Shown here: piece by piece, positions 4,921 to 23,130 of the stretch | Layout of the letters: every line of letters begins with the position of its first letter | Position numbering within the stretch: the first letter of the stretch is position 1 | Source of the DNA: Candidatus Omnitrophota bacterium | Lineage (GTDB): Bacteria > Omnitrophota > Gorgyraeia > Zapsychrales > Aceulaceae | DNA length: 64,000 nucleotides | Assembly: GCA_029564765.1 (NCBI GenBank) | Contig: JAKQPK010000050.1 | Span: 18,977-82,976 of the forward strand | Reading direction: 5' to 3' | Notes under the pieces: generated by a model | The model's input: only the letters and a program-made list of their open reading frames with translations | Databases searched by the model: none | Told to the model about the DNA's origin: nothing | Position numbers and translations under genes: made by a program

Positions 4921-6165
4921 TCAGATCTCAGCAATGGCTTGAACAACGCTGCAAAGTTCTTCTTTCGTTATCTGATAAAAAGCCGGCAAAAGGATCGTCG
5001 TGTCCCTAGCTTTCTCGGTTTCAGGAAGGTTCCAAATACTCGACCGATAAGGTTTCTGACGATGGGCGTTCATGACGCCTGGACGGGTGGCGATCCCTCG
5101 ATCCAAAAGTCGCTGCATGCATTGTTCTTGCGTGACGGGCGCTTGCGGTGTTAAACGCACGGGGAAAGAACCCCAGTTATTGATCGCATACGGGGCTTGA
5201 GAAGGCAATTGAAGCCATGAAATCTTGCTAAGCGCATCCGCATAGAACGCAGCGATCTCTTTTAGCTTTGCCAACAAAAGCGGCAATTTTTTGAGCTGCC
5301 CCAGCCCTATCGACGCCTGGATATCGCTCATGCGGTAATTAAAGCCTGTCACCAAATATTCTTCCAAAATAACCTTGTTCGCCTGATGGCGCGCTAGATC
5401 AGATACACCCATGCCTTGATGACGGAAAAGACGGAAAAAAGAATCATGTGCTGAGTCGTTGGTTGTCAGCATTCCTCCTTCTCCCGTTACAAGGATCTTT
5501 CTCGGATGGAATGAAAAACACGCGATATCCCCATGAGGCTTACCGATCTTCTCAAAAGTCTTTCCTTGGTCAACAGAGATCTCACTTCCGATACCATAAG
5601 CCGCATCTTCGATCACAGGAATGTTGAAACGTTTGGCAAGGGTCAAGATGCGTTCCATCTGACATGGAAAACCCAGCTGATGAACAGCAATGATCGCGGC
5701 AATACGCCCAAGCCGCCTGGAAGGATCACCAGCCATTGACACTAGCGGCGATTCCTCACTTAAAAGATCCTTGACGTGACGATACCATAAACCCTGCGCA
5801 TCGCGTAAACACTCTTGCGTCAAGATCTTTTCCAGATGATCTGGACACATGTTGTAGCCATCTTTTTCCACATCGACAAAAACTGGCTCCGCTGCGCAAT
5901 AGCGCGCGCTGTTTGCTGTTGCGATGAACGAATGACTGACAGTCAAAACAATATCTCCCGGCCTTACGCCGACAGCTAGCAGTGCTAAGTGAAGAGCGGT
6001 CGTACAGCTAGAAACAGCACATGCATGTTTAGCACCCACGAATGAAGCAAATTTATCTTCAAATTCTTTAACGCGTGGCCCCTGCGTGACCCATCCGGAA
6101 AGGATCGCCTGTCGCGCGAGTTCGACCTCATCTTCTGTTAAGAATGGCTTTGTGATCGGGATCAT
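4921..6165 (-). CDS. DegT/DnrJ/EryC1/StrS (ArnB-like) PLP-dependent sugar aminotransferase
   Basis: PITKPFL...EDEVE...AILSGW N-terminus and overall fold-type I sugar aminotransferase pattern. The ATGA start overlaps the stop of the upstream epimerase gene. Confidence 0.85.
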   Translation of the reverse strand: MIPITKPFLTEDEVELARQAILSGWVTQGPRVKEFEDKFASFVGAKHACAVSSCTTALHLALLAVGVRPGDIVLTVSHSFIATANSARYCAAEPVFVDVEKDGYNMCPDHLEKILTQECLRDAQGLWYRHVKDLLSEESPLVSMAGDPSRRLGRIAAIIAVHQLGFPCQMERILTLAKRFNIPVIEDAAYGIGSEISVDQGKTFEKIGKPHGDIACFSFHPRKILVTGEGGMLTTNDSAHDSFFRLFRHQGMGVSDLARHQANKVILEEYLVTGFNYRMSDIQASIGLGQLKKLPLLLAKLKEIAAFYADALSKISWLQLPSQAPYAINNWGSFPVRLTPQAPVTQEQCMQRLLDRGIATRPGVMNAHRQKPYRSSIWNLPETEKARDTTILLPAFYQITKEELCSVVQAIAEI

Positions 6166-7136
6166 AGATTAGTTGTTCCATCAAGCCACTGCGTTAAAAG
6201 CGTCAGTCCTTGCACAAGGTCGACTTTCGCTTTAAACCGTAATGATCTAGCAGCTTTGATCACACTTGCTTTACGACGATAAACCTCGATCTTGCCGCGG
6301 TCGCCAGGAATCGGCATGTACTTCGGTTTAAGCGGAGATCCCATAGAGCGCAACAGTGCTTGGCATAACCCGCTCAAAGATGTCTCCTTGCCGCTTGCGC
6401 AATTAAAGGTTTCACTGCAAACATCAGAGGTTAAAGCCAGGATCGTGGCCCGGGCAACATCTCCCACATAAATGAAATCCATAGTTTGTTTGCCGTCACC
6501 ATAGATCAAGGGCTGTTCTCCCTTACGGATCAAATGATGCCAGCGGACTAAAACCTCGGTATACTTACCGCAAGCATCCATGCGAGGACCGTACACATTG
6601 AAATAGCGGAGAATATTGAATTTCAGTCCATACATTTGAAAGAACGACGCAAGCATGAGCTCATCCGCCATTTTTAAAGCCCCGTAGAATGTCCGGTTGT
6701 TATACGGATGATGATCTTCTTTGGTTGGAAAAGCATCTGCCTGTCCATAAATGGATGCTGTCGATGCGAGAACGATCTTCTGGACCTTGTGTTTAACACA
6801 CGCCTCAAGAATATTATAGGTACCAACAGCGTTCACTTCTAGCGCATGACGGGGTTCCGCCATACATTGAATGATCTTTAAAGAAGCCAGATGAAAACAG
6901 TAATCGATCCCTAAAAATACGCGATCTAAAAGTTCAATATCGCGAATATCACCCTCAATAATCGTGACGCGGCTGCTTGAAAGCGCATGCTGCAGGTTTT
7001 CACGCCTGCCGTGATTAAAATTATCGATGACGACGACTTCTTTTACCTCAGCGACTAACAGTTGATCAACGACATGAGAACCGATACATCCAGCACCCCC
7101 TGTAACAACAACACGCTTTCCCTTAAGTTCATGCAT
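6162..7136 (-). CDS. NAD-dependent epimerase/dehydratase (extended SDR; UDP-sugar dehydratase/decarboxylase/4-epimerase class)
   Basis: VVVTGGAGCIGSHVV glycine-rich NAD motif and a YxxxK context (YGALK). ~320 aa. Its ATG overlaps the ftsA stop by 1 nt (TAATG). Confidence 0.85.
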   Translation of the reverse strand: MHELKGKRVVVTGGAGCIGSHVVDQLLVAEVKEVVVIDNFNHGRRENLQHALSSSRVTIIEGDIRDIELLDRVFLGIDYCFHLASLKIIQCMAEPRHALEVNAVGTYNILEACVKHKVQKIVLASTASIYGQADAFPTKEDHHPYNNRTFYGALKMADELMLASFFQMYGLKFNILRYFNVYGPRMDACGKYTEVLVRWHHLIRKGEQPLIYGDGKQTMDFIYVGDVARATILALTSDVCSETFNCASGKETSLSGLCQALLRSMGSPLKPKYMPIPGDRGKIEVYRRKASVIKAARSLRFKAKVDLVQGLTLLTQWLDGTTNL

Positions 7137-8377
7137 TAGAAATACTCCTGGTAAAGTTCTTTAAGGCGGTATGTGACCTTATGCAACATTGATCCTTGTT
7201 TATACACTTGCGAAAACGGGACAGGAAGACCATCAGTTGCGCGCTGGACAGCCAATCCAATGCATCCAGCATATACAGCTGGATTGTTCAATTGTTTTGT
7301 TTCGATCTGGATCTTTGCGACCTTTGTCGGGACAGAAAATTTTTGCTCCATGGATTCAAGCAATCCGGAGAGTAACGCTCCCCCTCCAACAACAAAAATA
7401 CCCGCACACAGATGATGCTCTAAATCTGCCTGTCGAACTAACTGATGAATTTTTTCAACAAGGGTCATTGCCCATGGCGTCACAACCTGGCAGACACTTT
7501 GACGGTCGATCGTCACATAACTAGCGTCGCGCTTGACCAGGATCTCACCCTTGATCATCGCGCTATCATCGCCGGTCAACACCATCGCGTAGGAACGCTT
7601 GATGTCTTCTGCCAGATCGAACGGAAGGTTCAGTTTACGGCTAATTTCTTCAGTAAGTTGATTGCTGCCGTAATTAAGAATACCTAGATTTTTAAGTACG
7701 CCCTCTTTAAAGATCAGCACGCTTGTCGCTTCAACGCCCATGTCGATGAAGATGCATCCTCTTTTTTTATCATCATCCGCTAGGCAGGCATCCGCTGATC
7801 GCAGCGATGAAAAAGCGACTGTTTTAACATCAAAACCGGCTTGTTGAACTGCCTTGTGAACATTATTGATCAGATTGCTCTGCGCCACCGCGATCAGAAT
7901 ATTCGCCTCGAGTTTACGGCCATGAAGCCCTAAAGGATTAGCCGCCATATTAAATCCATCGACAACATATTGGACCGGAAAATCATGGATCAATTTCTCA
8001 TCCAAATTGATCCCAAGCAAGCAGGCCTGGTGGTTGATCTTCTTAATATCAAAAGTTGTAATAACCTTATTTCCTTTGTCAGCTAAGGGTATGATCGCGT
8101 GTGTTTTTCTATGCTGAATAAAATGTCCGCCTAAACCGATGTGAACATCTTTGAAGTCCAGCTTCGATTTTTCCTTAAGGCCGTTGAGGATGCGGTTTAT
8201 TCCATCAGACACATCTTGCAGGTCGCTAATGGATGATTTTCGAATACCACGGGTTGCAACCTGTGAAATACCGACAATCTCTGGGGCGTGGACATGGTCA
8301 ACGCGCGCCAAGCAGGCTTTAAGCCGGTAAACGCCAAGGTCTAATCCGCAGACAATAGTTTCTTTATTCATCGACAT
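7136..8377 (-). CDS. ftsA: Cell division protein FtsA (actin-like ATPase)
   Basis: ~410 aa with actin/Hsp70-fold motifs (GLDLG..., VVGGGALL). Sits immediately after ftsQ in the dcw cluster. Confidence 0.85.
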   Translation of the reverse strand: MSMNKETIVCGLDLGVYRLKACLARVDHVHAPEIVGISQVATRGIRKSSISDLQDVSDGINRILNGLKEKSKLDFKDVHIGLGGHFIQHRKTHAIIPLADKGNKVITTFDIKKINHQACLLGINLDEKLIHDFPVQYVVDGFNMAANPLGLHGRKLEANILIAVAQSNLINNVHKAVQQAGFDVKTVAFSSLRSADACLADDDKKRGCIFIDMGVEATSVLIFKEGVLKNLGILNYGSNQLTEEISRKLNLPFDLAEDIKRSYAMVLTGDDSAMIKGEILVKRDASYVTIDRQSVCQVVTPWAMTLVEKIHQLVRQADLEHHLCAGIFVVGGGALLSGLLESMEQKFSVPTKVAKIQIETKQLNNPAVYAGCIGLAVQRATDGLPVPFSQVYKQGSMLHKVTYRLKELYQEYF

Positions 8378-9140
8378 ATTTGATCACAGGCTGGGCAAAA
8401 CGTAGATCAATATAACGGATACGTTCCCAATCTAATCTTGCTTTGTTGAGAATGAGGCTCAACGTCTCGATCTGCTTATCAATAGATTCTCGATCTGCAA
8501 CGACCTCTAGCTTCTCCCCAATGAAAAAAATGATTTTTGAAGTATTCTCGACGTTAATACGCATAATATGAAATGAACCTGAAATAGAATTTTTCTGGAA
8601 GACATCAATAATGTTGAGAGCTATCTTCAAATTCTGATTATCAATAATTTGACCCATGGGCACTGTTTTCGGACGCGCCACGCCATGAACAAGAGGTAGC
8701 ATAACGTTAAAGAAATCATTTGGGACAGTAACATATCCTTGACGATCAACAACAAAACGCTGATCGTTAAAAACAACGATCGCAAAAGGAGGACGGTCTT
8801 TTAGATCAACATAGATCTCATCCGGAAACCGCTTCATAATACGAATATCTTTTGCCTCTGGAAAAAGTCGGGTCAATTGCTTCTGCAACCCGACAAGATC
8901 GACCGAAAAAATGCTCTGGTCGCGTAAATATCCGAAACGCTTCAATTCTTGTGCTTTCGAGGGCGCTGAACACGTGATCTTCTTGATGCGGAAATATGAA
9001 GAATTTGCGACCCATGCCGCTGTGCTGCGCATGATCAAGAAGCAAAAGAAACCAAAGAACAATAAAGTTAAAAGCGGCCGCAAAATAGGGAAGCCTTGCG
9101 ATGAACGGGGTCTTATTGATTTCTTAATTTTCTGGCTCAT
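8364..9140 (-). CDS. ftsQ: Cell division protein FtsQ/DivIB (N-terminal TM helix plus POTRA domain)
   Basis: Single N-terminal TM helix followed by a POTRA-like region; position between ddl and ftsA. Confidence 0.75.
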   Translation of the reverse strand: MSQKIKKSIRPRSSQGFPILRPLLTLLFFGFFCFLIMRSTAAWVANSSYFRIKKITCSAPSKAQELKRFGYLRDQSIFSVDLVGLQKQLTRLFPEAKDIRIMKRFPDEIYVDLKDRPPFAIVVFNDQRFVVDRQGYVTVPNDFFNVMLPLVHGVARPKTVPMGQIIDNQNLKIALNIIDVFQKNSISGSFHIMRINVENTSKIIFFIGEKLEVVADRESIDKQIETLSLILNKARLDWERIRYIDLRFAQPVIKYVDE

Positions 9141-10095
9141 ATGCTAATCGCACAAGATTAAGACAAAGATTCTTAAAATCGATACCTATCGCAGAAGCGG
9201 CTTTAGGCAAAAGACTGGTTGCGGTCATGCCGGGGATCGTGTTGATCTCCAAGACCCATGGAATATTATTCTCATCTAAAAGAAGATCCACCCGCGACAG
9301 ATGTCGACACCCAATGCTACGATGAACCCGCCAAGCGATCTGTTGAACCTGCTGGGCGATAACAGGATCGATCTCCGCCGGAACAATATACTCGGTCATG
9401 CCGGCTTGATATTTTGCCTTATAGTCAAAAAAAGGATTTTTGGGTCTTATCTCAACAACTGGTAAAAGTGTATTGCCTAAAATGCCAGCTGTCAATTCTT
9501 TTCCATGAATATACGCCTCGATCAATATTTGATCACCATAAGAAAACGCATCTTGAACCGCAAGAGATAGTTGCTGATGATCTGCCACGATGGTCACTCC
9601 AAAGCTCGAGCCTTCGCTGACCGGCTTGACCACAACCGGCTTTCCAGCAAAAACCGATCTTACCTCCTCTTTGATCTTCTTTTCATCCGATCTATTAAAC
9701 GCAAGGAATGAAGGGACACGGACATGGTTTTCGCGCAAGAGCTGATACGTTGAAAGCTTATCCATAGCGGTCCTGCTGGCTGCGGCATCTGATCCTGTGT
9801 AAGGTATCTGAATACTATCCAAAATCTCTTGGATCCTTCCATCCTCACCAAAACGCCCATGCAGCGCGATAAACGCGATATCAATCTTGGAAGCCTTCAC
9901 AAGCGTGATGATATCCGCAGGGTTCTCCGTTGAGATCTCCAGGGATGACACTCGACATCCGGCCTCGGTCAACGCCTTAACAACACCCGTTCCGGATTTG
10001 ATGGAGATCTCTTTCTCGGAAGAACACCCTCCCATAAGAACACCAACATGCTTCTCAAGGACCCTAGACAATTGCTCTTCTGTCATTTTTATCAT
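9124..10095 (-). CDS. ddl: D-alanine--D-alanine ligase
   Basis: ATP-grasp motifs (IALHGRFGEDG..., EINTIPGMT) and ~320 aa length. Confidence 0.9.
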   Translation of the reverse strand: MIKMTEEQLSRVLEKHVGVLMGGCSSEKEISIKSGTGVVKALTEAGCRVSSLEISTENPADIITLVKASKIDIAFIALHGRFGEDGRIQEILDSIQIPYTGSDAAASRTAMDKLSTYQLLRENHVRVPSFLAFNRSDEKKIKEEVRSVFAGKPVVVKPVSEGSSFGVTIVADHQQLSLAVQDAFSYGDQILIEAYIHGKELTAGILGNTLLPVVEIRPKNPFFDYKAKYQAGMTEYIVPAEIDPVIAQQVQQIAWRVHRSIGCRHLSRVDLLLDENNIPWVLEINTIPGMTATSLLPKAASAIGIDFKNLCLNLVRLAYEPEN

Positions 10096-10104
10096 TTTCC
10101 AGAG

Positions 10105-11460
10105 CTACCTTTCCATGCCCGCCATGATATCTTTTATTATCTGGTTGATATTACCGGCACCCAAGGTGATGACCAAGTCCCCCGGCTGCGCAACAGCGCG
10201 AACATGGTCGGCGATCTGGTCATAATGAAGATAGACGACAGGGCGTCCTTCACGGTCCTTTAACTGTTGGTACAAGACAGGGGCGCCAACACCGACAATA
10301 GGCTCCTCGCTGGCCGCATAAACATCGGTCAAAACAAGGTAGTCGCAATTCTGCAAACTTGCAATGAATTCTTTTTGAAGGAATTTTAGCCTTGAAAAAC
10401 GATGCGGTTGAAAGATCGCGATCACGCGCTTGCGGCGCAGCAATCGTGCCGCGGCCAATGTTGCCTGGACCTCAGTCGGATGATGCGCATAATCATCGAT
10501 AAATAAAATATCATTGATCTCGCCTCGACGCGTAAAACGTCGTTGAACGCCAGAAAAATCCTTTAAACTTTTTTGAACGAGCGCAAAGTCAAGATTGATC
10601 AACCGAGACAGAGCGACAGCCGCTAACGCGTTGGCAATATTATGCCTGCCTAGAACACGCAATTCTATAGCTCCCAGACATACGCCTCGCTCATAACATA
10701 GAAAGCGCGCGTCCCCTTGATCAAAACAGATATCCTCTGCCATCAGATCATTACCCGCGGAAAGTCCATAAGTTATGTTTGGGATCTTTTTCTGCTGAAT
10801 CAATTTTCTTAGATTGACATCATCTCCGCAAACGATCAAGGATCCCTGAGGATGGGTCTGGCCTAAAAATTGAGCGTAGGCTCCCATCATGTTGTCCCAG
10901 GTCTTGTAATATTCCATATGCTCAAAATCGATGTTCGTCACAATAGAATAAAAAGGATGAAAATGCAGGAATGATCCATCGCTTTCATCCACTTCCGCCA
11001 CACAATACTCTCCTTGCCCAAGGTCAGCGCTCATGTCCCCATTGTTCATGATGCCTCCAACGGCAAGCGTAGGCCGCAAACCAGCATCACGTAACACACA
11101 GCTGACCATCGATGTGGTAGTTGTTTTGCCATGAGCTCCGGCAACCGCGATCAATCTTTTTTCGGCCATAACCTCTGCTAAAAGTTTCGCTCGATGCACA
11201 ATACTAATACCCTTCGCTCTTGCTTGCTGCAACTCAGGGTTGTCAGTATTGATCGCTGAAGAGAAAACAATACAATCCGGGCGTTGAACATTTTCTTTTT
11301 TATGCCCTATCGTGATCTCTGCTCCTTTTGCGCGCAGCCGCGATGTCAAAAGATTATCCTTAAGATCAGAGCCGCTGATCTTGTGTCCTTTTTCCTGCAA
11401 CAAGCTTGCCAGCGTTCCCATGCCAATACCGCCAATGCCGATAAAATGGTAGTGCTTCAT
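10105..11460 (-). CDS. murC: UDP-N-acetylmuramate--L-alanine ligase
   Basis: FIGIGGIGM N-terminus and the Mur ligase P-loop GAHGKTTTTS. Start chosen at ATG 11458-11460, which forms an ATGA overlap with the stop of the upstream peptidase gene. Confidence 0.9.
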   Translation of the reverse strand: MKHYHFIGIGGIGMGTLASLLQEKGHKISGSDLKDNLLTSRLRAKGAEITIGHKKENVQRPDCIVFSSAINTDNPELQQARAKGISIVHRAKLLAEVMAEKRLIAVAGAHGKTTTTSMVSCVLRDAGLRPTLAVGGIMNNGDMSADLGQGEYCVAEVDESDGSFLHFHPFYSIVTNIDFEHMEYYKTWDNMMGAYAQFLGQTHPQGSLIVCGDDVNLRKLIQQKKIPNITYGLSAGNDLMAEDICFDQGDARFLCYERGVCLGAIELRVLGRHNIANALAAVALSRLINLDFALVQKSLKDFSGVQRRFTRRGEINDILFIDDYAHHPTEVQATLAAARLLRRKRVIAIFQPHRFSRLKFLQKEFIASLQNCDYLVLTDVYAASEEPIVGVGAPVLYQQLKDREGRPVVYLHYDQIADHVRAVAQPGDLVITLGAGNINQIIKDIMAGMER

Positions 11461-12239
11461 TTCTTCAAATACCCCATCCACGCCTTATTGAGATCATCGA
11501 TCGTCTGAAAACGATAATACGCTTTTTCCAAAGCATCTTCGAACCTAAGACCCTTCTTTAAGTTCTGACAAAAATTCAAGAATTTAAATGCCCCATGCTC
11601 TGTGATCAAATACCGAATGACGCTGGCAGATTCCGCGTAAAATAAATTCACGACCTCCCGATCGGTCGCGGATGTAAGCCTTGTCCGGCCAAGCTCTGAG
11701 AGAGGAATAAAACGATTTTCTGCGATCGCTTTTCTTACTTCATCATCGGCTCCCCAGCGCTTCGCTTTTTCTTGATACATCGCCACCCCCTCATCCACCC
11801 ATAGAGGAAGATCAGAGGAAACCCCAACATATTCCCTGAAAATGATATGCCCAAGTTCGTGCGGCAACAAGGAGTCAAAAAATCCGTGCGCCGCTGGATA
11901 CGTCTGGATCGCTCGCGACCCTATTCTCGTCGAAGCGCTCGACCAACCCGCCTGACGGGAAGAAACAAGATAATCATCTTCGTTGTCATAGATGTAAATT
12001 TGGGCTCGATCATCCCATGTCCATAGCTGATCCCTGCTAAAACCAAGATCCTTAACAATGCTGTAATAATATCCCTCCGCTGATTCTTCGACAGCCTTTA
12101 TGAATTCCTTAGGTGCGTTCTTGTAATAAATAATAAAATGCCGGCTACGATTTTCTTTCCAGTTTTGAGCAGCCATAGCATAGCTGGAAAAAAAGATCAT
12201 AAATAAAATATTTATTATAACGATCTTCTTTATTATCAT
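11457..12239 (-). CDS. Secreted zinc metallopeptidase, Peptidase_MA (gluzincin)-like, inserted in the dcw cluster
   Basis: N-terminal signal peptide (MIIKKIVIINILFMIFFSSYAMAAQ). An HELGH (HExxH) motif is followed about 20 aa later by EGVAMYQE, the gluzincin third-ligand Glu pattern. ATGA overlaps with murG upstream and murC downstream. Confidence 0.6.
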   Translation of the reverse strand: MIIKKIVIINILFMIFFSSYAMAAQNWKENRSRHFIIYYKNAPKEFIKAVEESAEGYYYSIVKDLGFSRDQLWTWDDRAQIYIYDNEDDYLVSSRQAGWSSASTRIGSRAIQTYPAAHGFFDSLLPHELGHIIFREYVGVSSDLPLWVDEGVAMYQEKAKRWGADDEVRKAIAENRFIPLSELGRTRLTSATDREVVNLFYAESASVIRYLITEHGAFKFLNFCQNLKKGLRFEDALEKAYYRFQTIDDLNKAWMGYLKK

Positions 12240-13306
12240 AACAAAGATACGATCTCTTCAGCGATGCGCAAAGCGGGCTTTACAGCATTCGGACCAGAGC
12301 CCTGTGCTGGCACATTTTTTGATGGATACAATTTTAACCGCCTTATAGTTTCATCAGCCAGGCTTTGGGCTGTGCACATCTCATCCGTTATCATCGTCGC
12401 CAAGCCTTGCTCACAGACAATCTCAGCGTTTTCTTTTTGGTGAACACGCACTAAAGGATACGGGATCAGTATAGCTGACTTCTGAAAGCTTAGGATCTCA
12501 CAGACCGTTGCTGCCCCTGAGCGCGCCACGACAAGGTCCGCGATCGCATAAGCGGATTGAACATCATCCAGAAAATCAAAAAGCTGATACGGAATCTTTA
12601 GCGATCGATATCGAAATTGAAGGTCCTGATGATCCGCGCTGCCGCAAACATGAATGAATTGGAACATAATCTTTTCGTTCAGCAGCTCAACCGCCTGAGA
12701 GAACGCCACATTGATCCTACGACTTCCCTGGCTTCCCCCAAGGACAAAGATCGTTTGCCGTTGAGGTGAAAGCTGAAATTGTTGATAGATCTCCTCTTTT
12801 GATTTTGCTGATGGGGTGTCCCGGCAGGGACATCCGGTCAAAACGGTCTTTGATGAACGAAAGTGATCTTCGCTCTTCTTAAAGCTGATCGCTATCTTAT
12901 TTACAAAATTCTTTAAGACCCGATTTGACCATGACGGGACCACGTTCTGATCGTGGATCAAGGTCGGCTTTCGCTTTATGATCGCGGCTACCACGACTGG
13001 AAACGCGCCATATCCCCCAAAACCAACAACAACGTCTGGGCCAATATCCTGAATCAATACGCACGCCTGATAAATAGCGTACACCATTTGAAATCCCTCT
13101 TTTATCGCACTAAAAGCAGAGACGAGCTTCATGCGCACCGAGGCTATCACCCAAGCCTGAAAATGATGCCTACGCACAAGATCGAACGCAAGGCCCTGGG
13201 TCGTTAAAAAAACAACTTCGTGTCCCTGGTCGACAAGCACCTTGGCCGTTTCTAGGGCCGGAAAAACATGCCCCCCGCTGCCTCCTGCGCCGATCATGAT
13301 TCTCAT
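12236..13306 (-). CDS. murG: Undecaprenyl-PP-MurNAc-pentapeptide-UDP-GlcNAc GlcNAc transferase
   Basis: IGAGGSGGHVFPA N-terminal GT28 motif; ~355 aa. Confidence 0.9.
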   Translation of the reverse strand: MRIMIGAGGSGGHVFPALETAKVLVDQGHEVVFLTTQGLAFDLVRRHHFQAWVIASVRMKLVSAFSAIKEGFQMVYAIYQACVLIQDIGPDVVVGFGGYGAFPVVVAAIIKRKPTLIHDQNVVPSWSNRVLKNFVNKIAISFKKSEDHFRSSKTVLTGCPCRDTPSAKSKEEIYQQFQLSPQRQTIFVLGGSQGSRRINVAFSQAVELLNEKIMFQFIHVCGSADHQDLQFRYRSLKIPYQLFDFLDDVQSAYAIADLVVARSGAATVCEILSFQKSAILIPYPLVRVHQKENAEIVCEQGLATMITDEMCTAQSLADETIRRLKLYPSKNVPAQGSGPNAVKPALRIAEEIVSLL

Positions 13307-13312
13307 ATTTAC

Positions 13313-14398
13313 CTACGCTAGATCCTGTACACGAGAAATGTTCAACAAAAGACCGATGCAGATCATCTGAACGACCAGCGCTGATCCTCCATAGCTGACG
13401 AATGGCAACGGCAATCCTTTTGTTGGAAAAGCCCCAATACTAACACCGATATTGATAACGGCCTGAAGCGCTATGACCGCCACGATCCCTAGGGCTAAAA
13501 AATATCCAAAAGGGTCTTCGCAGCGTTTGGCAATACGCGCCCCCTGCCAGATCAACAGCGTAAAAAGAACAATGACCGAAACTGTCCCAAAGAGGCCTAA
13601 TTCCTCACCGATGATCGATAAAATAAAATCCGTATGCGCGGCTGGAAGATAATATAGCTTTTGAACACTTTTTCCTAAGCCAACGCCTAAAAGCCCTCCA
13701 GAGCCTAAGGCGATCTGAGACTGGACCAGCTGAAATCCGGCCCCTTGCTGATCTTTCCAAGGGTCTAAAAATGCCTGGATACGTCTTAAACGATACGGTG
13801 TTTTCGCGATCAGATAGACTAGCGCTGGCAAACTTAAGAAGCCGACAAGGCTCATGTGCCATAGTTTTGCACCAGCAACGAACATCATGATAAAAATAAC
13901 AGCTGCGATCAAAGCCGTTGTTCCAAGGTCAGGCTGCTTAAGGATCAGAAGACAGACAGCCCCCAGCGCCATCATGATCGGCATGAAACCCAAAAAGAAA
14001 TTTTGTATCTTTTCTCGTTTCCTAGACAAAAAATCCGCTGTATAAATGATCATCGCGATCTTTGTCAGTTCAGATGGCTGAAAGCTAAATCCAAAGAACT
14101 GAAACCAACGTTTTGCCCCATAAACTTCACGGCCTGCCACAAGAACAAGCAAGAGAGATGCCAGCGAACACAAAAAGATCGGTTTCGCATATTTTGCTAG
14201 CAAGCGATAATCGACGAGCATCGCCATGATCATCGCGCAAAGTCCTGCCATTAAATAAAATAAATGCCGCCTGAGAAAATACGTACTTGATCCCAGCTCG
14301 CGCAGCGCAAAAACACTGCTGGCGCTGAAGACCATGACAACACCCAAGGCCACCAAGACCATCGTAATGACAGCGATTGAAATTCTGATCTCGCGCAT
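13313..14398 (-). CDS. ftsW: Lipid II flippase / peptidoglycan glycosyltransferase FtsW (SEDS family)
   Basis: ~10-TM SEDS profile with C-terminal PLPFVSYGGSA motif; dcw context. Confidence 0.85.
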   Translation of the reverse strand: MREIRISIAVITMVLVALGVVMVFSASSVFALRELGSSTYFLRRHLFYLMAGLCAMIMAMLVDYRLLAKYAKPIFLCSLASLLLVLVAGREVYGAKRWFQFFGFSFQPSELTKIAMIIYTADFLSRKREKIQNFFLGFMPIMMALGAVCLLILKQPDLGTTALIAAVIFIMMFVAGAKLWHMSLVGFLSLPALVYLIAKTPYRLRRIQAFLDPWKDQQGAGFQLVQSQIALGSGGLLGVGLGKSVQKLYYLPAAHTDFILSIIGEELGLFGTVSVIVLFTLLIWQGARIAKRCEDPFGYFLALGIVAVIALQAVINIGVSIGAFPTKGLPLPFVSYGGSALVVQMICIGLLLNISRVQDLA

Positions 14399-14401
14399 AA
14401 A

Positions 14402-15667
14402 TTATAACTGGTGGACGATCCTCTTAAATTCTCTTCCCCGATGTTCAAAATTATCGAACATATCAAAACTTACACACATAGGGCTTAAGACAACGCAATC
14501 ACCTGCTTGCGCAGCTGCGCGCGCCTTACAAACGGCATCCTCAAGATCTGCCCCCTCTTCCAGCGGCAGAATATCAGAAAAAGCATGCTTTAAATCTTCT
14601 TTATCTTGACCAAAGACGATCATTTTCTTGATCTTTTCACGCGCGATCTCTCTCAAAGATGAAAAATCAAGGTGCTTGTTTCTGCCCCCACAAATAAAGA
14701 TCAAAGGCTTTTGAATAAGCATCATCGCCAACCGTCCGGATTCGACCGTTGTTGATTTTGAATCGTTAACATAATCCACGCCATCCAGAGTACGAACAAA
14801 CTCCTGGCGATGTTCAACACCTTTAAAGGTTGCCAAAAATCTTTTAGCCACATCCACTGGAACCCCCAGGACGGAGCAAGCGGCAATAGCAGCAAGAAAA
14901 TTCGGGTTTACAACGCTGGGATCACAAACTCCTGGCTCGTTATAATACAGAATGTGGGATGAAAGTTTGGCCGCCAGATCTCGATGCAAAGGTTCATAAA
15001 AATTCAAAACTGCAAAATCATTCCTTGTTTGGTTCATAAAGATGCGCGCTTTTGCTGTGAAATATTCATTTAGGTCCTGATGACGATCAAGATGATTCTG
15101 GCTAAAATTCAGAAAAACTGCCACCTTAGGCTTAAATGTCTCAATGGTTTCCAGCTGGAACGAACTTACCTCAAGAGCTACGATATCATTCTTCTTAAGG
15201 TCTAGGACATATTGAGAAAAGGGCGTTCCGATATTTCCACAAAGAAAGGCATTGCGCCCTGACGCCTTTAAGATCTCCGCGATCACCGTTGTTGTTGTTG
15301 TCTTTCCGTTAGTGCCTGTGACCGCGACGACATCACACGGACAATACTGCCAAGCAAATTCAATCTCACCCAGGACGGGAATGTTTCTTTCCCTTGCCCA
15401 GAATGCTGGCAAAGCATTGACCGCAACGCCTGGGCTCAAGACCACAACATCGCTTTCCTGGATAAACTCCTTTGTATGCTGTCCGCTTTCGATCAGGGAT
15501 AGATCGTCTAGATTTGCCCTTAAAAGAGCTTCACGGATCTTCTCTCGTGGCGCGGCATCAGAGATCTTGACCTTAGCGCCAAGCTTTAGGGCAAGATGAG
15601 CCGAAGCGATACCGCTGCGGCCCAAACCAACGATCGTGACGATCTTATCTTTTATATCAATGGCCAT
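14402..15667 (-). CDS. murD: UDP-N-acetylmuramoylalanine--D-glutamate ligase
   Basis: N-terminal VGLGRSG Rossmann motif and Mur ligase P-loop GTNGKTTTT. Confidence 0.9.
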   Translation of the reverse strand: MAIDIKDKIVTIVGLGRSGIASAHLALKLGAKVKISDAAPREKIREALLRANLDDLSLIESGQHTKEFIQESDVVVLSPGVAVNALPAFWARERNIPVLGEIEFAWQYCPCDVVAVTGTNGKTTTTTVIAEILKASGRNAFLCGNIGTPFSQYVLDLKKNDIVALEVSSFQLETIETFKPKVAVFLNFSQNHLDRHQDLNEYFTAKARIFMNQTRNDFAVLNFYEPLHRDLAAKLSSHILYYNEPGVCDPSVVNPNFLAAIAACSVLGVPVDVAKRFLATFKGVEHRQEFVRTLDGVDYVNDSKSTTVESGRLAMMLIQKPLIFICGGRNKHLDFSSLREIAREKIKKMIVFGQDKEDLKHAFSDILPLEEGADLEDAVCKARAAAQAGDCVVLSPMCVSFDMFDNFEHRGREFKRIVHQL

Positions 15668-16753
15668 TTATCTTATCTTGATAGTTGTCAGGGTAAGCAA
15701 CGCGAGAATGATCGCGATGATCCAGAAACGAACAATGATCTTAGACTCATTCCACCCTAAAAGTTGTAAATGATGATGAAAAGGAGACATTTTAAAGATA
15801 CGCTTACCCCGCGTCTTCACGGAAAGGACCTGCAAAATAACGGATAGTGCCTCCCAGACAAAAATGCCACCTAGCAGGATCAATAGGATTTCTTTCTTGA
15901 TAAAAACCGCTATCGCTCCTAACGTCCCACCGAGTGCCAAAGAGCCGACATCCCCCATAAAAATCGAGGCAGGATAACAATTGAACCATAAAAAACCAAG
16001 GCTCGCGCCAAGGATCGCGGCACAGACAACCGTCAACTCACCTGTTCCCGGGATAAATGGAAGGAACAAATATTCCGCGAACTTAAAATTACCCGAGATA
16101 TAGCTCAACGCCCCTAAACCAAGAGCGACAAATAAAACGCAGCCGATCGCTAACCCATCAAGCCCGTCCGTCAAATTGACAGCGTTAGAGCAGCTCATCA
16201 CGATCAAGGCTGCCCAGAGAATGAAAAAGATATCAAGATAAAGGATAGTAGATTTTAAGAAAGGGATATCCAAGCGCGTTGTTGTATCCGGAGCGAGAAA
16301 GACGAAAAATCCTACCACGCACCCTAAGACGAATTGCCAAAAAAGTTTTGTCCCTCCGGAAAGACCGCGATGACCTTTTTGGCAGATCTTCAAATAATCA
16401 TCAATGAAGCCCAGCACCGCAAGGGTTGACATTGTCAAGATCGACAAGAGAACATATAGATTAGACAGATCTGCCCACAAAAAAAGCGCGGATAAAATGC
16501 TGAGGACAATAAAAATGCCCCCCATTGTCGGCGTGCTCTGTTTGTATTTCTGGACCTCTGAAAGGGCCTGACAGTAGTCCCTATCAACACCTTCTTTAAC
16601 TTCATCTTTCTGGAATTTCCGGATGAAGATAGGCGCTAAGATCAAGCAAAGAAAAAAAGATGTAAAAGCCGCGGCGCCCGAACGAAAAGTGATGTAGCGA
16701 AAGATATTAAGAAAAGAAAAGGAATCTCGAAATCCGGATAAGAAATACAGCAT
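15668..16753 (-). CDS. mraY: Phospho-N-acetylmuramoyl-pentapeptide transferase
   Basis: Polytopic membrane protein with the MraY signature; ~360 aa. Confidence 0.9.
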   Translation of the reverse strand: MLYFLSGFRDSFSFLNIFRYITFRSGAAAFTSFFLCLILAPIFIRKFQKDEVKEGVDRDYCQALSEVQKYKQSTPTMGGIFIVLSILSALFLWADLSNLYVLLSILTMSTLAVLGFIDDYLKICQKGHRGLSGGTKLFWQFVLGCVVGFFVFLAPDTTTRLDIPFLKSTILYLDIFFILWAALIVMSCSNAVNLTDGLDGLAIGCVLFVALGLGALSYISGNFKFAEYLFLPFIPGTGELTVVCAAILGASLGFLWFNCYPASIFMGDVGSLALGGTLGAIAVFIKKEILLILLGGIFVWEALSVILQVLSVKTRGKRIFKMSPFHHHLQLLGWNESKIIVRFWIIAIILALLTLTTIKIR

Positions 16754-16818
16754 AAAATACTCCTATAAAGAATAATTTTATTATATATACTTGGATTAGA
16801 AATGAAAAGGATTTTACG

Positions 16819-18177
16819 TTAAAAATGACATGCCTGTAATTTATTTACAATATGTTCCATGCGCATGCCACGCGAACCTTTGATGAGGATCACATCTGCA
16901 GGCAAAGTATTCTGCATAAGATATTCAACGATCTTTTCCTGTCTTGAATAGTGATGGCTTTCGACCCCATGCTTACACGCTTGTTCTGAAGCTATACGGG
17001 ACCATGTCCCATAGGCCAAAAGTACCTTGACTCCCTTATCAGCGCTTAGTCGACCAACGCGCTGATGCGCTGTACGCGAGGATCGCCCCAGCTCCTTCAT
17101 GTCTCCGAAAACAAAATACTTTTTACCCGAAGATGGGAAAAGCTCTAGCGCATTTAAGGCCGAGGATACCGATGCCGGATTCGCGTTATATGTATCATCG
17201 ATGACCCAGCGTCCGCTGACCTTCAGGATATTCTGGCGCCCTTTTGGAAATCTAAAATTCCATAGCGATCGCTTGATCTGAGCATAAGGAACGCGGAACT
17301 TGCGGCCCAAAGCGATCGCCACTAACGCGTTGTAAACATTCTCTTTTGATAGTGTCTTAAGGGAAAACTTCTCGCTTCCAACCTGGAATGTTATCCGCAT
17401 GCCTTTGGCCGTTATGTTCTTAGCCTGATAATGGCTTTTTTTGTCGATCGAGAACCGAAGCACATCCGTCTTTGGATATCGAATGCCGATCGTCGCCAGC
17501 CAATCATCATCAGAATTGTAAACAATGCATTCCAGGCGTGGCGAGCAACGAAAGATATTAGATTTCTCTTTAAAGACACCTTGGCGATTTTTAAGAAACT
17601 CCAGATGGGAATCACCAATATTGGTAAGGATCGCGATGGTTGGCTGGCCCATGCGAGCCAATCGTTCGATCTCCCCAAAATGATTTGTACCAAATTCAAG
17701 CACAGCTAAGGAATGCTTATTGTTTAGCTGCAACAATGTTTTGGCAACGCCTATTTCGTTGTTCTCTGTTTGGAAATTCTTTAGAAGGTGGAAATGCGAG
17801 GACAAAACCTTCCCTAAAAGCTCTTTTGTTGTTGTTTTTCCAACGCTTCCTGTCAACGCGATGACAGGGATCGAAAAGCGCGCACGATGATATTTGGCTA
17901 GCGCGCAATACGCCTGTAATGTATCTTCGACGATGATGGTAGGGATGCGCGCATGAGGCAGTAATATCTTTTTAGAGACGAGCAAGGCGCTCGCCTTCTT
18001 GCTGATGGCGTTTTTGATGAACTGATGTCCATCAAAATTCTTCCCGCTCAAAGCAACGAACAGATCTCCAGGGCGAATGGTACGTGTATCTGTTGAAACA
18101 CCCCGCACACGTAACGCAGGGTAACTGTTCACAATCTTGCCGTTGGTGCAAAATAGGATCTCCTCTATCGTGAACAT
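16819..18177 (-). CDS. murF: UDP-N-acetylmuramoyl-tripeptide--D-alanyl-D-alanine ligase
   Basis: Mur ligase P-loop GSVGKTTTKE; position between murE and mraY. Confidence 0.85.
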   Translation of the reverse strand: MFTIEEILFCTNGKIVNSYPALRVRGVSTDTRTIRPGDLFVALSGKNFDGHQFIKNAISKKASALLVSKKILLPHARIPTIIVEDTLQAYCALAKYHRARFSIPVIALTGSVGKTTTKELLGKVLSSHFHLLKNFQTENNEIGVAKTLLQLNNKHSLAVLEFGTNHFGEIERLARMGQPTIAILTNIGDSHLEFLKNRQGVFKEKSNIFRCSPRLECIVYNSDDDWLATIGIRYPKTDVLRFSIDKKSHYQAKNITAKGMRITFQVGSEKFSLKTLSKENVYNALVAIALGRKFRVPYAQIKRSLWNFRFPKGRQNILKVSGRWVIDDTYNANPASVSSALNALELFPSSGKKYFVFGDMKELGRSSRTAHQRVGRLSADKGVKVLLAYGTWSRIASEQACKHGVESHHYSRQEKIVEYLMQNTLPADVILIKGSRGMRMEHIVNKLQACHF

Positions 18178-19628
18178 AGCAAAAATTCCTTTGCAACATC
18201 TCGGTCATCGAAATGGATCTTCTTGTCTTTTACGATCTGGTAGTTCTCGTGCCCCTTGCCGGCGATGATAACAACATCATCAGCCTGCGCCATGGTCAAT
18301 GCGCGAGTGATAGCGTCCTTGCGGTCAAGAATGATCAGATACCGGTCATGCGCGAACCCCGCGACGATCCGCTCAACGATCTCTTGAGGATTTTCGCTAC
18401 GGGGGTTATCATTAGTAACAATGGAAAAGTCCGCAAGTTCGCTGGCGACCCGGCCCATTTTGACACGTTTGGATTTATCGCGATCGCCACCGCAGCCGAA
18501 CACTAAGATGATCCTTGTTTTCTTTACCGCACGCAGATTCATCAAAACATTACGTAACGCATCGTCCGTATGCGCATAGTCAACAAAAACAGAAAATTTC
18601 TGGCCACAATCTATAGATTCCAAGCGGCCAGGAACATGCTCCATATTCTCAACACCTTGACGGATATCCTCTATTTTCACACCCAGCGCATGACATGCTG
18701 CCGCAGCCGCCAGAATATTATAAACGTTGTACTGACCAACAAGACGCGTTGTGATGCGACACTGATTGCGACCGATCGACATGATAAAATTTGTCTCACG
18801 GAAACCGAGCTGAATATGTTCGGCCATAACATCCGCTCCGCGATGAAGACCATAAGAAAGCATCTTGCTAGGAACCATGCTGGTCAAGCGCTGGCCAAAT
18901 GGGTCATCAATATTGATAACGGCTGTCGCGGATTCCTTGAGGGACAAGAAAAGCTTGGCTTTTGCCATAAAATAGCTTTCCATGTCTTTATGGTAATCCA
19001 AATGGTCCTGAGTAAGGTTCGTAAAGATGCCGACTTGAAAATCAATGCCGTCCACCCTGCCCTGCTCAAGCGCGTGCGAAGAAACTTCCATCGCGCAGCA
19101 TGTGCACCCAGTTTTTTTCATCTGGGACAAATACGCGCAAAGATCCAGCAAGTGAGGTGTTGTGTTGTCAAGCGGGATCATTTTATGGTCAAACCGGCAA
19201 TTGATCGTTCCGATCACGCCGCATTTTTCTCCAGCGCACGACAAGATGGAATCGATCAAGTAAGTGGTGGTTGTTTTTCCGTTGGTCCCTGTAATGCCTA
19301 TGCAGTGAACGTGAGATGACGGATGTTGATAAAAACGATGCGCGATCTCTTTTAGAAAAGCTCTTGTATCGTCGACTTCTAAAAGACAAACATGATCGGC
19401 AACAGAAGGGGTGCGATGCCGATGGTCTCTAACGATACACACAGCCCCTCGCTCGATCGCCTGCGACAGGTAATCAACGCCATCGCTTTTAGCACCTTTA
19501 AGCGCGATAAAAAGACTGGATGGCCCAACGATCCTTGAATCGTGCGCAATAGCACGGATCTCATATGATTGGTGCTGGGCAGAAATGGGTTTGGGATAAA
19601 TATCAGCGACTAGATTCTTCAGCAGCAT
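18165..19628 (-). CDS. murE: UDP-N-acetylmuramoyl-L-alanyl-D-glutamate--2,6-diaminopimelate ligase
   Basis: P-loop GITGTNGKTTTT; C-terminal DNPR motif (TNDNPRSE), which typifies meso-DAP-adding MurE. Confidence 0.9.
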   Translation of the reverse strand: MLLKNLVADIYPKPISAQHQSYEIRAIAHDSRIVGPSSLFIALKGAKSDGVDYLSQAIERGAVCIVRDHRHRTPSVADHVCLLEVDDTRAFLKEIAHRFYQHPSSHVHCIGITGTNGKTTTTYLIDSILSCAGEKCGVIGTINCRFDHKMIPLDNTTPHLLDLCAYLSQMKKTGCTCCAMEVSSHALEQGRVDGIDFQVGIFTNLTQDHLDYHKDMESYFMAKAKLFLSLKESATAVINIDDPFGQRLTSMVPSKMLSYGLHRGADVMAEHIQLGFRETNFIMSIGRNQCRITTRLVGQYNVYNILAAAAACHALGVKIEDIRQGVENMEHVPGRLESIDCGQKFSVFVDYAHTDDALRNVLMNLRAVKKTRIILVFGCGGDRDKSKRVKMGRVASELADFSIVTNDNPRSENPQEIVERIVAGFAHDRYLIILDRKDAITRALTMAQADDVVIIAGKGHENYQIVKDKKIHFDDRDVAKEFLLCSR

Positions 19629-21324
19629 GGCTCTTTTTTGATTGAACAGCTTCTTCAGCTTGTAAATATTTTAACACATTTTCTGCGATTTCCTTAAAAA
19701 TTGGGGCACAAACCGTACCTCCAAAATAAGTCCCCCGAGGATTATCGAACATAATGGCCATGGCAACCTTAGGATCTTCTACTGGCGCAAAACCGATAAA
19801 AGTCGCGTAAAAATGATCGTGGGAATATCGGCCAGAAACGATCTTTTGTGCCGTTCCTGTTTTTCCAGCGGCTGCAACATTTTTTATTCTTGCAAGTTTA
19901 CCGGTCCCTCTCTCGATCGCTCCCGCTAAAATACTCTTGACCCGCTGCGCCGTAGCAGGGTCGATGACCTGTCGCACAACATGCGGAGAAAACTTTTCAA
20001 TGGTCTCTCCATTCTTATCTCTAATCTCCTTGACCACATAAGGCTTCATCAAGATACCGTCGTTGGCGATAGCCGCAATTGCGCACGCGAGCTGGATCGT
20101 TGTTACCCCTACCTCGTGCCCGATAGGGACAGAACCAATGGAGATTTTTGACCATTGCCCATAAGACTTGAGGGATCCATTGATCTCTCCGGGAACATCG
20201 ATACCTGTTCTTTTGCCAAATCCAAAGCGTTGCGCATAATCATTGAATACTGGCCCTCCGAGCTTTTGCGCGATCTTTACAACTCCAATATTGCTTGATT
20301 GTTCGACTACCTCGCGAAAGGTCAATGTGCCATGGGCATGATGATCATGCAAAGTATGGTTCACTATGCGGTAGGCACCGTTCTCACAAAAAACCTTATC
20401 CGTTTCCTGTACAATTCCTTTCTCAAGAGCGGCAGACGTTAACACAACCTTAAAAACAGAACCTGGTTCGTACATATCACATACAGCCCGATTTTTCCTC
20501 TGATCTTCATGACTCTTGCCGAACTCGTTTAGATCGTACGTTGGGCGGTTCGCAAGAGCCAGGACCTCTCCTGTCCTAGGGTTAAGAACAACAACGCTTG
20601 CGCTCATTGCCCGATGGCGCTGGAACCCTTTGGCAAGCGCCTGTTCTACAAAATACTGGATATTATCATCGATCGTTAAGATCAGATCGAATCCATCTTG
20701 AGGCTTAAGAAGGGCCTGCTCGATCAAAAGGTCTTGTTGGCGCGCATCGCGCAGTATTTGAGCCGCACCTTCTCGCCCAGCAAGAAGCTTGTCAAACTTC
20801 AGCTCAAGTCCTTCAAGGCCATGGCCATCGGTTCCCGCAAAACCTACAAGATGCGCCGCGGCTTCGTGACCAGGATAGCTGCGCTTACTTTCTTTCATAA
20901 AATGAATACCTCGCAGCTTAAACGCAAGAACTTTTTCCATATCATCCAAGGATAATTTACGCGCGAGCCACACAAAACCTTTGTCACGTGTCAACCTCTC
21001 CCTCAAAAGATCTTTATCGAGGCCGATGGTCCGGGGCAAGACATCAATAGCTTTCTCAATATCAGCAGGCTTCATCATGCGCGGAGCGGCATATAACGAA
21101 TAGGCTGCGATATCTAGAGCTAAAGGCCTGAACTGTCGATCATAGATCGTTCCTCGCTTAGGCGCGAGGGTGATAACATGCGTCTGTTGTTTTTGGGCAA
21201 GATGGTTCAGGTAGGATGAGCGGAATACTTGAATGAGGACGAGTTTAAGCGTGAAAAAGCCAAAAAAAAGGATAAAAAAAATAAAAAGAAGGATAAATCG
21301 AAGGGATCTTTTTCGGAAATACAC
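19603..21324 (-). CDS. ftsI: Peptidoglycan D,D-transpeptidase FtsI (class B PBP)
   Basis: N-terminal TM anchor. STxK-like SVFK, SxN (SSN) and KTGT motifs of the penicilloyl serine transferase domain. Confidence 0.85.
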   Translation of the reverse strand: MYFRKRSLRFILLFIFFILFFGFFTLKLVLIQVFRSSYLNHLAQKQQTHVITLAPKRGTIYDRQFRPLALDIAAYSLYAAPRMMKPADIEKAIDVLPRTIGLDKDLLRERLTRDKGFVWLARKLSLDDMEKVLAFKLRGIHFMKESKRSYPGHEAAAHLVGFAGTDGHGLEGLELKFDKLLAGREGAAQILRDARQQDLLIEQALLKPQDGFDLILTIDDNIQYFVEQALAKGFQRHRAMSASVVVLNPRTGEVLALANRPTYDLNEFGKSHEDQRKNRAVCDMYEPGSVFKVVLTSAALEKGIVQETDKVFCENGAYRIVNHTLHDHHAHGTLTFREVVEQSSNIGVVKIAQKLGGPVFNDYAQRFGFGKRTGIDVPGEINGSLKSYGQWSKISIGSVPIGHEVGVTTIQLACAIAAIANDGILMKPYVVKEIRDKNGETIEKFSPHVVRQVIDPATAQRVKSILAGAIERGTGKLARIKNVAAAGKTGTAQKIVSGRYSHDHFYATFIGFAPVEDPKVAMAIMFDNPRGTYFGGTVCAPIFKEIAENVLKYLQAEEAVQSKKSHAAEESSR

Positions 21325-21344
21325 AGATTTTTTTCAATTAATGA

Positions 21345-21731
21345 TTATCGTATAGGTCTAGCTTCAGCGATAGACCTAAACCCAAAAACCTTATCTAAAA
21401 GACTCGATGCGCGCTTTACGATAGTCGGCGATACAGCACGATCAGCTTTCACAAGCTCTGCTGGTGTTGCTTGAACATCAATAATATTACCACGACTCGC
21501 AAAATCAACATCGACATTTTTATCAAAAAAATGAGCTCCAAGATTTTGAGCGGATTTCAATCTTGCAATGTTGACGGTCGCGTGTGTATTATTATCCGAA
21601 AGCTTCAACGCCTGATCTTCGCGTTGTTTTGCCTGATACGCTAGATCGTAGATCATTACCTGCATTTGAATGTAGATCAATGAAAAGATCGTTACAGTTA
21701 GGCATAAAACAGAAAATTTCTTTAGGTTCAT
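21345..21731 (-). CDS. ftsL: Cell division protein FtsL (small bitopic coiled-coil protein)
   Basis: ~128 aa with one N-terminal TM helix followed by a coiled-coil-like segment. Position between rsmH and ftsI. Weak sequence signal. Confidence 0.55.
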   Translation of the reverse strand: MNLKKFSVLCLTVTIFSLIYIQMQVMIYDLAYQAKQREDQALKLSDNNTHATVNIARLKSAQNLGAHFFDKNVDVDFASRGNIIDVQATPAELVKADRAVSPTIVKRASSLLDKVFGFRSIAEARPIR

Positions 21732-22651: not shown

Positions 22652-23091
22652 CAGGATATCTCCAAGATATTTTCCGCGATCTGCTCGAAAGAATCACGTG
22701 TCGTTCGATAAAAGTCTTCCCATGTCTTTTTATCCCATAGCTCAATGCGTGAAGAAACCCCGACAACCATGACATCTTTTACAATGCCAGAAAATTCTTT
22801 TAAATAGCTCGGGATAATAAAACGCCCTTGTCGATCCGGAACAATGTCAGCAGCACCAGCAAAGAACATGCGGTTAAAACTACGGCTTTCTTTTTTCGTG
22901 AAAGACATTGTCTTGAACTTTTGCTCTTGGGTGGCCCACTCATGCTCGCTAAACATGAAAATACACTTATCCAGCCCCCGAGTGAGAAAAAAGCGCTCAA
23001 TATTATTCTCCCGCGCGATCTCCCGGAATCTCGACGGCAAGATCAGTCGTCCTTTGCGATCTATGCTGTGGTCATATTCTCCGTAAAACAT
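22651..23091 (-). CDS. mraZ: Transcriptional regulator MraZ
   Basis: Two tandem MraZ/SpoVT-AbrB-like repeats, DxxGRL (DRKGRLILP) and DRQGRFIIP. Start re-picked at ATG 23089-23091 with SD GGAG 7 nt upstream; the track start at 23103 is GTG. Confidence 0.85.
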   Translation of the reverse strand: MFYGEYDHSIDRKGRLILPSRFREIARENNIERFFLTRGLDKCIFMFSEHEWATQEQKFKTMSFTKKESRSFNRMFFAGAADIVPDRQGRFIIPSYLKEFSGIVKDVMVVGVSSRIELWDKKTWEDFYRTTRDSFEQIAENILEIS

Positions 23092-23130
23092 CGTATACTC
23101 CACTTTCCTCCACTTTATCCCACAATTTGG
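23092..23130 (-). promoter_or_regulatory. Three 10-bp-phased GTGG(G) direct repeats (candidate MraZ operator boxes) between the -10 and the mraZ start codon
   Basis: Minus strand reads TTGTGGGATA|AAGTGGAGGA|AAGTGGAGTA just 5' of the ATG. This resembles the published MraZ boxes, AAAGTG[GT]G in Mollicutes and TGGGN repeats in E. coli. Confidence 0.45.

Follow-up and report, generated by a model that had tools for sequence, protein, structure and literature searches.

The cluster of genes for division and the cell wall (dcw) is among the most conserved bacterial gene arrangements, and its murG-murC junction normally holds nothing, murB or ddl. We analyzed a 64,000-nucleotide stretch of DNA (the window; all coordinates below refer to it unless a related locus is named) from a member of the Candidatus Omnitrophota, bacteria that are mostly uncultured and often ultra-small. 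Here the junction holds a gene for a predicted exported zinc peptidase (11457-12239, minus strand; 260 aa, ATG start, stop codon included). The peptidase scores above the gathering threshold of Peptidase_MA_2 (PF13485), and NCBI names its homologues "peptidase MA family metallohydrolase"; this membership and this naming were already known. Peptidase_MA_2 is a broad, functionally uncharacterized domain family for which literature searches by name or accession found no functional study, and the dcw position appears nowhere in the annotation. We likewise found no published description of a dcw peptidase in the literature on the family, on Omnitrophota and on peptidoglycan gluzincins. As far as the searched literature goes, two observations are new: (i) the phylum-wide fixed place of the gene in the dcw core, with codons interlocked with those of its neighbors; and (ii) a parallel paralogue in a secretion/pilus operon. 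We conclude that an exported zinc protease gene is probably a fixed part of the Omnitrophota cell wall and division operon. Whatever the substrate, we consider it very likely that the gene yields an active zinc peptidase that is exported, and that the gene is a conserved and functional member of that operon.

The described enzymes that come closest are the M1 aminopeptidases (LTA4 hydrolase, PepN, ERAP1) and the M9 collagenases (ColG, ColH, ColT, Vibrio). PF13485 is the sole Pfam match of the single-domain protein, at 55 bits against a gathering cut-off of 32.4, with residues 80-259 aligned to profile positions 22-200 of 201; NCBIfam gave just a far sub-threshold flagellinolysin match. Read from the sequence, the zinc-binding and catalytic motif HELGH occupies residues 127-131 (11847-11861, minus strand), and the predicted third zinc ligand, E150, opens the motif EGVAMYQE 18 residues past H131 (11790-11792, minus strand). 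This HExxH-x18-E spacing is M1-type, and judging from the motif, zinc would be held by H127, H131 and E150. By analogy with M1 enzymes, Y201 in the motif FYAES (11637-11639, minus strand) is a candidate transition-state-stabilizing tyrosine. An alignment of 93 orthologues shows no variation at H127, E128, H131, E150 or Y201, and the same holds for the sister clade described below. The original prediction, made from the DNA letters, had described a 260-aa HELGH gluzincin of Peptidase_MA-like type; the profile match, an HExxH family, and the HExxH-plus-E150 arrangement bear it out. We note in addition a single cysteine, C224 (11568-11570), which lies in an FC motif and is invariant in both clades. 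Exactly one cysteine is present in the mature part of 79 of 93 dcw-type proteins, and a lone conserved thiol is unusual for an exported protein.

The resemblance to M1 enzymes extends to a WLxEG-like third-ligand motif, the downstream conserved tyrosine and the fold of the catalytic domain. Unlike them, the dcw peptidase has neither the GxMEN exopeptidase motif nor the N-terminal beta domain and C-terminal helical lid, is predicted to be exported, has 260 rather than 600-900 residues, and does not match PF01433, although a precomputed PF01433 match exists for some sister-clade proteins. The place equivalent to GxMEN is occupied by AGWSSAS (residues 97-103), where the family consensus is WSxGxA with no conserved glutamate. 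A true M1 aminopeptidase was rejected on the missing GxMEN motif and the missing extra domains. Among solved structures, the M9 collagenases, which are secreted gluzincin endopeptidases, match best, with TM about 0.6-0.66 on the query and E between 5e-7 and 2e-5. They differ in that identity is 12-17%, that their peptidase domain alone aligns, and that Pfam finds no M9 match; the dcw peptidase is half the size of a collagenase unit and lacks activator, PKD and collagen-binding domains.

The AlphaFold model (pLDDT 91, pTM 0.83) places residues 2-21 in a single helix that stands apart from the globular part, with strands at residues 28-113 and helices from residue 120 on. In this model, a small sheet subdomain and a helical subdomain bearing the zinc ligands make up the thermolysin-like two-subdomain fold of gluzincins (clan MA, subclan E). 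When the model was compared with the PDB by Foldseek, the top matches were all M9 or M1 catalytic domains: the highest rank went to peptidase domains of M9 collagenases (E = 5e-7, TM about 0.62 on the query), and M1 aminopeptidases came next, together with LTA4 hydrolase. Searches of solved-structure sequences with the protein and with a profile returned only a marginal M1-type match (6a8z), which aligns HELGH and WVDEGVA with HELAH and WLSEGFA.

By simple sequence rules, applied without a dedicated predictor, residues 1-23 (12171-12239, minus strand) form a predicted Sec signal peptide with an MIIKK n-region, a hydrophobic core and an AMA|AQ cleavage site, in line with the signal peptide that the original prediction had called; the N-terminus may alternatively be an uncleaved membrane anchor. 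The same rules applied across the family find a K/R n-region followed by a hydrophobic 12-mer in 91 of 91 proteins, a small-x-small pattern just before W27 in 85 of 91, and a lipobox in 2 of 91. The pI of the mature protein is on the mildly acidic side (median 6.3). Pfam found no LysM, SPOR, SH3b or PG_binding domain in the peptidase. On these sequence features, with export predicted by simple rules, we class the protein as a minimal gluzincin of one domain that is exported and that lies outside M1 and M9 in the strict sense.

The gene is interlocked with both of its neighbors. Its start forms an ATGA overlap with the murG stop (12236-12239, minus strand; peptidase ATG 12239-12237, murG TGA 12238-12236). 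The sequence TTATGATAATAAAG, at 12241-12228 on the reverse strand, holds these two codons with three bases in common. At the other end a second ATGA overlap (11457-11460, minus strand) joins the murC ATG (11460-11458) to the peptidase TGA (11459-11457), both of which lie in AAATGAAGCAC at the peptidase 3' end. The upstream neighbor is murG (12236-13306, minus strand; Pfam Glyco_transf_28 and Glyco_tran_28_C) and the downstream neighbor is murC (10105-11460, minus strand; Pfam Mur_ligase, Mur_ligase_M and Mur_ligase_C). The murC reading frame is open further upstream, to a GTG at 11481 in the open reading frame (ORF) listing; we set the start at ATG 11460 because the resulting product, MKHYHFIGIGG, has Mur_ligase from residue 3 and the closest relative (L001) starts alike. 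The insertion between murG and murC with an ATGA overlap on each side, as first reported for this DNA, is thus read directly in the sequence. The overlaps suggest translational coupling; the accompanying statement that the peptidase is "expressed stoichiometrically" with the precursor enzymes went too far, as coupling does not mean equal amounts.

The arrangement recurs across the phylum. A homologue search returned 802 homologues, and all named ones are Candidatus Omnitrophota; the nearest is 96% identical and those of Candidatus Aceula species are 58-63% identical. Scanning GTDB with one genome per species, we located 80 loci (L001-L080) through the peptidase itself, at 42-96% identity. All 80 carry murG-pep-murC on one strand, within mraY-murD-ftsW-murG-pep-murC-ddl-ftsQ-ftsA. 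Four further contigs (L081-L084) were selected through MurC, and a PF13485 gene lies between murG and murC in 4/4. A deep relative (about 42% identity; a cluster representative equidistant from the dcw and sister clades) has the gene in the same slot, followed by murC-murB-ddl. The position is therefore kept in 85 of 85 dcw loci, with pairwise identities down to about 35%; since 80 of these were found via the peptidase and only the four MurC-selected contigs were sampled independently, this count would miss Omnitrophota that have no such gene. Conservation of the insert in related dcw clusters, proposed earlier as a check, is what we observe. The junctions are tight as well, with a median of -4 nt both between murG and the peptidase (76 related loci, 54 at or below 0) and between the peptidase and murC (80 related loci, 54 at or below 0).

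Foreign ORFs lie between murG and the peptidase in two loci: a nucleotidyltransferase/HEPN-like (toxin-antitoxin-like) pair in L061 (4871-5900) and a DUF559-like ORF in L058 (5569-5955). The pep-murC junction is intact in both. Some gene-bearing contigs carry labels other than Omnitrophota, which we consider doubtful. The "Sulfurimonas" contig (L067, 1-2501) is 98.9% identical over 2.5 kb to an Omnitrophica contig of the same sample series (L066, 4877-7377) and then diverges, and by this comparison it is a bin contamination or a chimera; further such labels are "Elusimicrobia" and "Planctomycetales".

Selective constraint on the peptidase matches that on its neighbors. We compared dN/dS between the window and its closest relative, and median protein identity to the window over the 47 loci holding all compared genes. 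The peptidase has a dN/dS of 0.046 and a median identity of 49.8%, against 0.102 and 37.8% for murG, 0.084 and 49.0% for murC, and 0.039 and 59.5% for ftsW; median identities are 49.0% for murD, 48.7% for ddl, 37.5% for ftsA and 28.4% for ftsQ. Purifying selection on the peptidase is as strong as on the adjoining essential genes, and the protein diverges as slowly as MurC, MurD and Ddl, behaving like a core housekeeping gene of the cluster. We regard the ORF as a real gene because of its Pfam match (E = 1.2e-14), its 802 homologues and this dN/dS value. The reading frame holds no frameshift, so the suspicion of a degraded remnant raised with the original prediction falls away. More broadly, that the gene is a neutral hitchhiker or inactive remnant unlinked to dcw function is now close to refuted, and we hold it to be extremely improbable. 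Its sole support is that selfish elements can land at the murG-pep junction, as in L061 and L058, and we rejected it on the conserved synteny, the invariant catalytic residues and the dN/dS value. The GC content of the gene (0.433) is also close to that of the flanking genes and the window (0.452-0.485).

An exhaustive profile search, with clusters at 50% identity, returned 237 clusters at E <= 1e-30; at cut-offs of E <= 1e-10 and E <= 1e-3 the counts were 1893 and 7607. A profile built from the more distant members led to a second set of proteins, the sister clade (L085-L178, e.g. L085 3781-6273), which are Omnitrophota wherever named. Each of the six sister-clade loci that were looked up (6/6) belongs to a type II secretion/type IV pilus-like operon with the order gspE(PilZ)-gspF-[peptidase]-gspG-pseudopilins-gspK-pilMN-pilO, and no secretin gene was seen in the operon stretches. 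Pooling 80 metagenome-scan loci with four that were looked up, and counting only loci with room for the neighbor, we find that gspG directly follows the gene in 66 of 71 and that gspF directly precedes it in 46 of 65. The paralogue resembles the dcw peptidase in architecture, catalytic residues, signal-peptide-like N-terminus and lone conserved cysteine; it too occurs in this phylum, with its gene again set between core components of an envelope-machine operon. It differs in forming a separate clade (about 35% identity; between-clade median 35.5%, no nearest-neighbor mixing, a long stem between the two clades), in its looser gene junctions and in its own signature motifs, GFKGEVPLWLDEGVAQW and FCRQLRDGK. 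Of the 150 best cluster representatives, more than half lie equally far from the two clades; one of them is the dcw copy of the deep relative, and another is the distant member P0256 described below. A cluster look-up of these intermediate members yielded no informative names. The sister-clade assemblies retrieved are not among the 80 dcw loci, and the window has neither the paralogue nor the secretion operon; this was a search for both clades in one genome. We considered the paralogue as a prepilin-peptidase substitute and rejected it by reasoning: its positive N-terminus puts the catalytic domain in the periplasm, and prepilin cleavage is cytoplasmic.

A distant member (P0256, about 34% identity; L180 6001-6843) occupies a third context, beside genes for a Ser/Thr kinase, an FHA/sigma-54 activator and an Smr protein, and then an ABC-2 permease, a response regulator and a TPR protein. 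Some family members carry C-terminal additions, namely a thioredoxin-like CxxC domain (P0203, 409 aa), a domain of about 200 aa (P0241) or a Pro/Lys-rich tail (P0260). Judged from these sequences, the family is an expanded set of small, predicted exported gluzincins with at least two branches embedded in envelope-machine operons. The "dedicated role in cell wall or divisome processing" that had been suggested for the gene is reasonable in view of the synteny and strong constraint; because of the sister clade in the secretion/pilus operon and the distant member in a third context, the family itself is not divisome-specific.

Another reading is that of a released exoprotease, either a secretion cargo or a nutritional or predatory enzyme. 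The paralogue would then be the substrate of its own secretion system, and the dcw position would just secure expression. Type II secretion operons often encode their own cargo (e.g. SslE/YghJ, PulA), and collagenases are the closest folds. Many Omnitrophota are also thought to be host-dependent or predatory (bioRxiv 10.64898/2026.06.07.730766). Nonetheless, in most species both ends of the dcw copy overlap cytoplasmic housekeeping genes, the paralogue sits between the core machine genes gspF and gspG rather than at the operon edge, and the protein has no targeting or binding domain. Its slow evolution, like that of MurC and Ddl, also speaks against a secreted attack or feeding enzyme, which would usually evolve fast and be patchy in presence. 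We therefore judge the exoprotease explanation improbable.

We tentatively favor the view, at a probability of roughly 45%, that the enzyme is an endopeptidase of the periplasm and that its substrates are protein or peptide segments belonging to the wall-synthesis machinery. A protein or peptide substrate is preferred because the fold and the nearest relatives (M9, M1) act on L-polypeptides. We infer export, signal-peptide cleavage, zinc catalysis and the nature of the substrate, as follows. The gene would encode a catalytically competent, minimal thermolysin-like zinc endopeptidase as a fixed dcw member. The Sec pathway would export the protein and signal peptidase I would remove residues 1-23, leaving a soluble periplasmic enzyme of about 27 kDa. 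H127, H131 and E150 would hold the zinc, E128 would activate the water and Y201 would stabilize the intermediate; in the absence of a lid or accessory domains, an open cleft could bind an extended L-polypeptide. The enzyme may then mature or turn over exposed periplasmic segments of wall-building or wall-remodeling proteins, candidate substrates being wall hydrolases or those portions of FtsI, FtsQ, FtsL or FtsW that lie in the periplasm. Its operon position would supply this proteolysis in step with lipid II synthesis, and the sister-clade enzyme might do the same job on pseudopilins or PilN/PilO-type parts.

Exported and periplasmic proteases offer precedents for such an action: Prc processes FtsI, Prc-NlpI degrades MepS, and GelE trims AtlA. 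Prc/Tsp (acting on FtsI and MepS) and CtpA-LbcA resemble the proposed enzyme in that they are exported and process or degrade proteins of wall synthesis or wall hydrolysis; unlike it, they are non-homologous serine (S41) proteases with PDZ domains and are encoded outside dcw. Another comparison is the C-terminal toxin of Pseudomonas aeruginosa VgrG2b. This thermolysin-like gluzincin of MA(E) works in the periplasm and disturbs the division site with septal blebbing, and it appears to target proteins and not to be a general hydrolase of peptidoglycan (PMC6899460). The dcw peptidase is a member of a housekeeping operon, whereas VgrG2b is a type VI effector and has an immunity protein.

Several points weigh against a protein substrate. 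The substrate step draws on a fold prior and on analogy, and the openness of the cleft is deduced from the absence of extra domains rather than from model coordinates. Prc, CtpA and BepA have protein-recognition modules, whereas the peptidase carries none, be it PDZ, TPR or another. Finally, the sacculus is the one obvious link between both host operons, and direct cleavage of peptidoglycan would fit at least as simply. In that case the dcw enzyme would cut stem peptides or cross-links where new wall is inserted or at septation (as a space-maker, septum splitter or stem trimmer), and the pseudopilus or pilus machine would owe its opening in the sacculus to the sister-clade enzyme. We consider this possible, and the less likely of the two. 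Since dcw and secretion/pilus machines both build or cross the sacculus, peptidoglycan would be the simplest common substrate, and it is an established idea that machine operons can encode dedicated enzymes that open the wall. The peptidase gene also appears, judged from the codon overlaps, to be co-expressed with the lipid II synthesis genes. In N. gonorrhoeae, the M23 peptidoglycan peptidase Mpg (NGO1686) is reported to be required for full piliation (PMC3735123). In a 2016 survey covering few Omnitrophica genomes, AmiA, NlpD and EnvC were undetected (PMC5147048), which would leave room for a replacement.

Against a peptidoglycan substrate stand the nearest folds, which belong to L-peptide enzymes, the missing wall-binding domains (LysM, SPOR, SH3b, PG_binding), the mildly acidic mature protein, and the context of the distant member, which has no obvious wall link. 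Every peptide bond in A1-gamma peptidoglycan has a D-center or a gamma-linkage, and the known peptidoglycan peptidases belong to M15, M23, M74, M14, NlpC/P60 and serine families; we know of no thermolysin-like HExxH gluzincin that cuts peptidoglycan. No known wall-peptidase family appears among the Pfam and NCBIfam matches, which lowers the case for a known kind of wall hydrolase and leaves that for peptidoglycan cleavage as such where it was. A bolder version is somewhat less likely still, namely that the Omnitrophota HExxH gluzincins as a group are machine-dedicated peptidoglycan peptidases, the dcw copy being a septal or space-making hydrolase that replaces the amidase/LytM system and the paralogue opening the sacculus for a pseudopilus.

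An exported protease at the murG-murC junction would serve as a simple genomic signature for the phylum. The peptidase is also a concrete candidate for an unknown step in the growth and division of Omnitrophota, whose dcw cluster furthermore ends at ftsA with no adjacent ftsZ. Small gluzincins placed repeatedly in envelope-machine operons can be tested in vitro without culturing. Should the enzyme cut peptidoglycan, it would bring a new fold to the wall hydrolases, as the first thermolysin-fold peptidoglycan cleaver, and would be the first wall hydrolase hard-wired into the dcw operon core. Should it cut machine proteins, it would be a new case of proteolytic control built into a synthesis operon.

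The whole dcw cluster carrying the peptidase, assigned by Pfam, extends from mraZ to ftsA (7136-23103, minus strand) in the order mraZ-rsmH-ftsI-murE-murF-mraY-murD-ftsW-murG-pep-murC-ddl-ftsQ-ftsA, all on the minus strand, with ftsQ an FtsQ-like gene. A promoter and terminator scan gave matches at chance level, except for a strong promoter-like site upstream of mraZ (23159-23131, minus strand), the best of the scan. The window has no murB between murC and ddl (10095-10105). About 0.9 kb extra separates murC from ddl in some 11 related loci (L010, L014, L040, L053, L063, L066, L068, L072, L075, L077 and L079), and in L179 this slot (7116-8063) is murB (FAD_binding_4 and MurB_C). Some Omnitrophota encode a MurC-Ddl fusion protein of about 775 aa (P0378, L083 4001-6343; P0351), a fusion known from Chlamydiae.

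A tblastn search with E. coli FtsZ as the query detected no ftsZ in the 64-kb window or any of the 80 related loci, and no ftsZ follows ftsA in the four MurC-selected contigs. In the region 4921-8377, the window cluster stops at ftsA and is followed by genes for an NAD-dependent epimerase and a DegT-type aminotransferase. In L083, an RHS/YD-repeat toxin gene of more than 2000 aa with an Ntox21 domain (8286-10343) begins directly downstream of ftsA. Elsewhere in the window, an ORF of 1678 aa lies at 39319-44355 on the minus strand.

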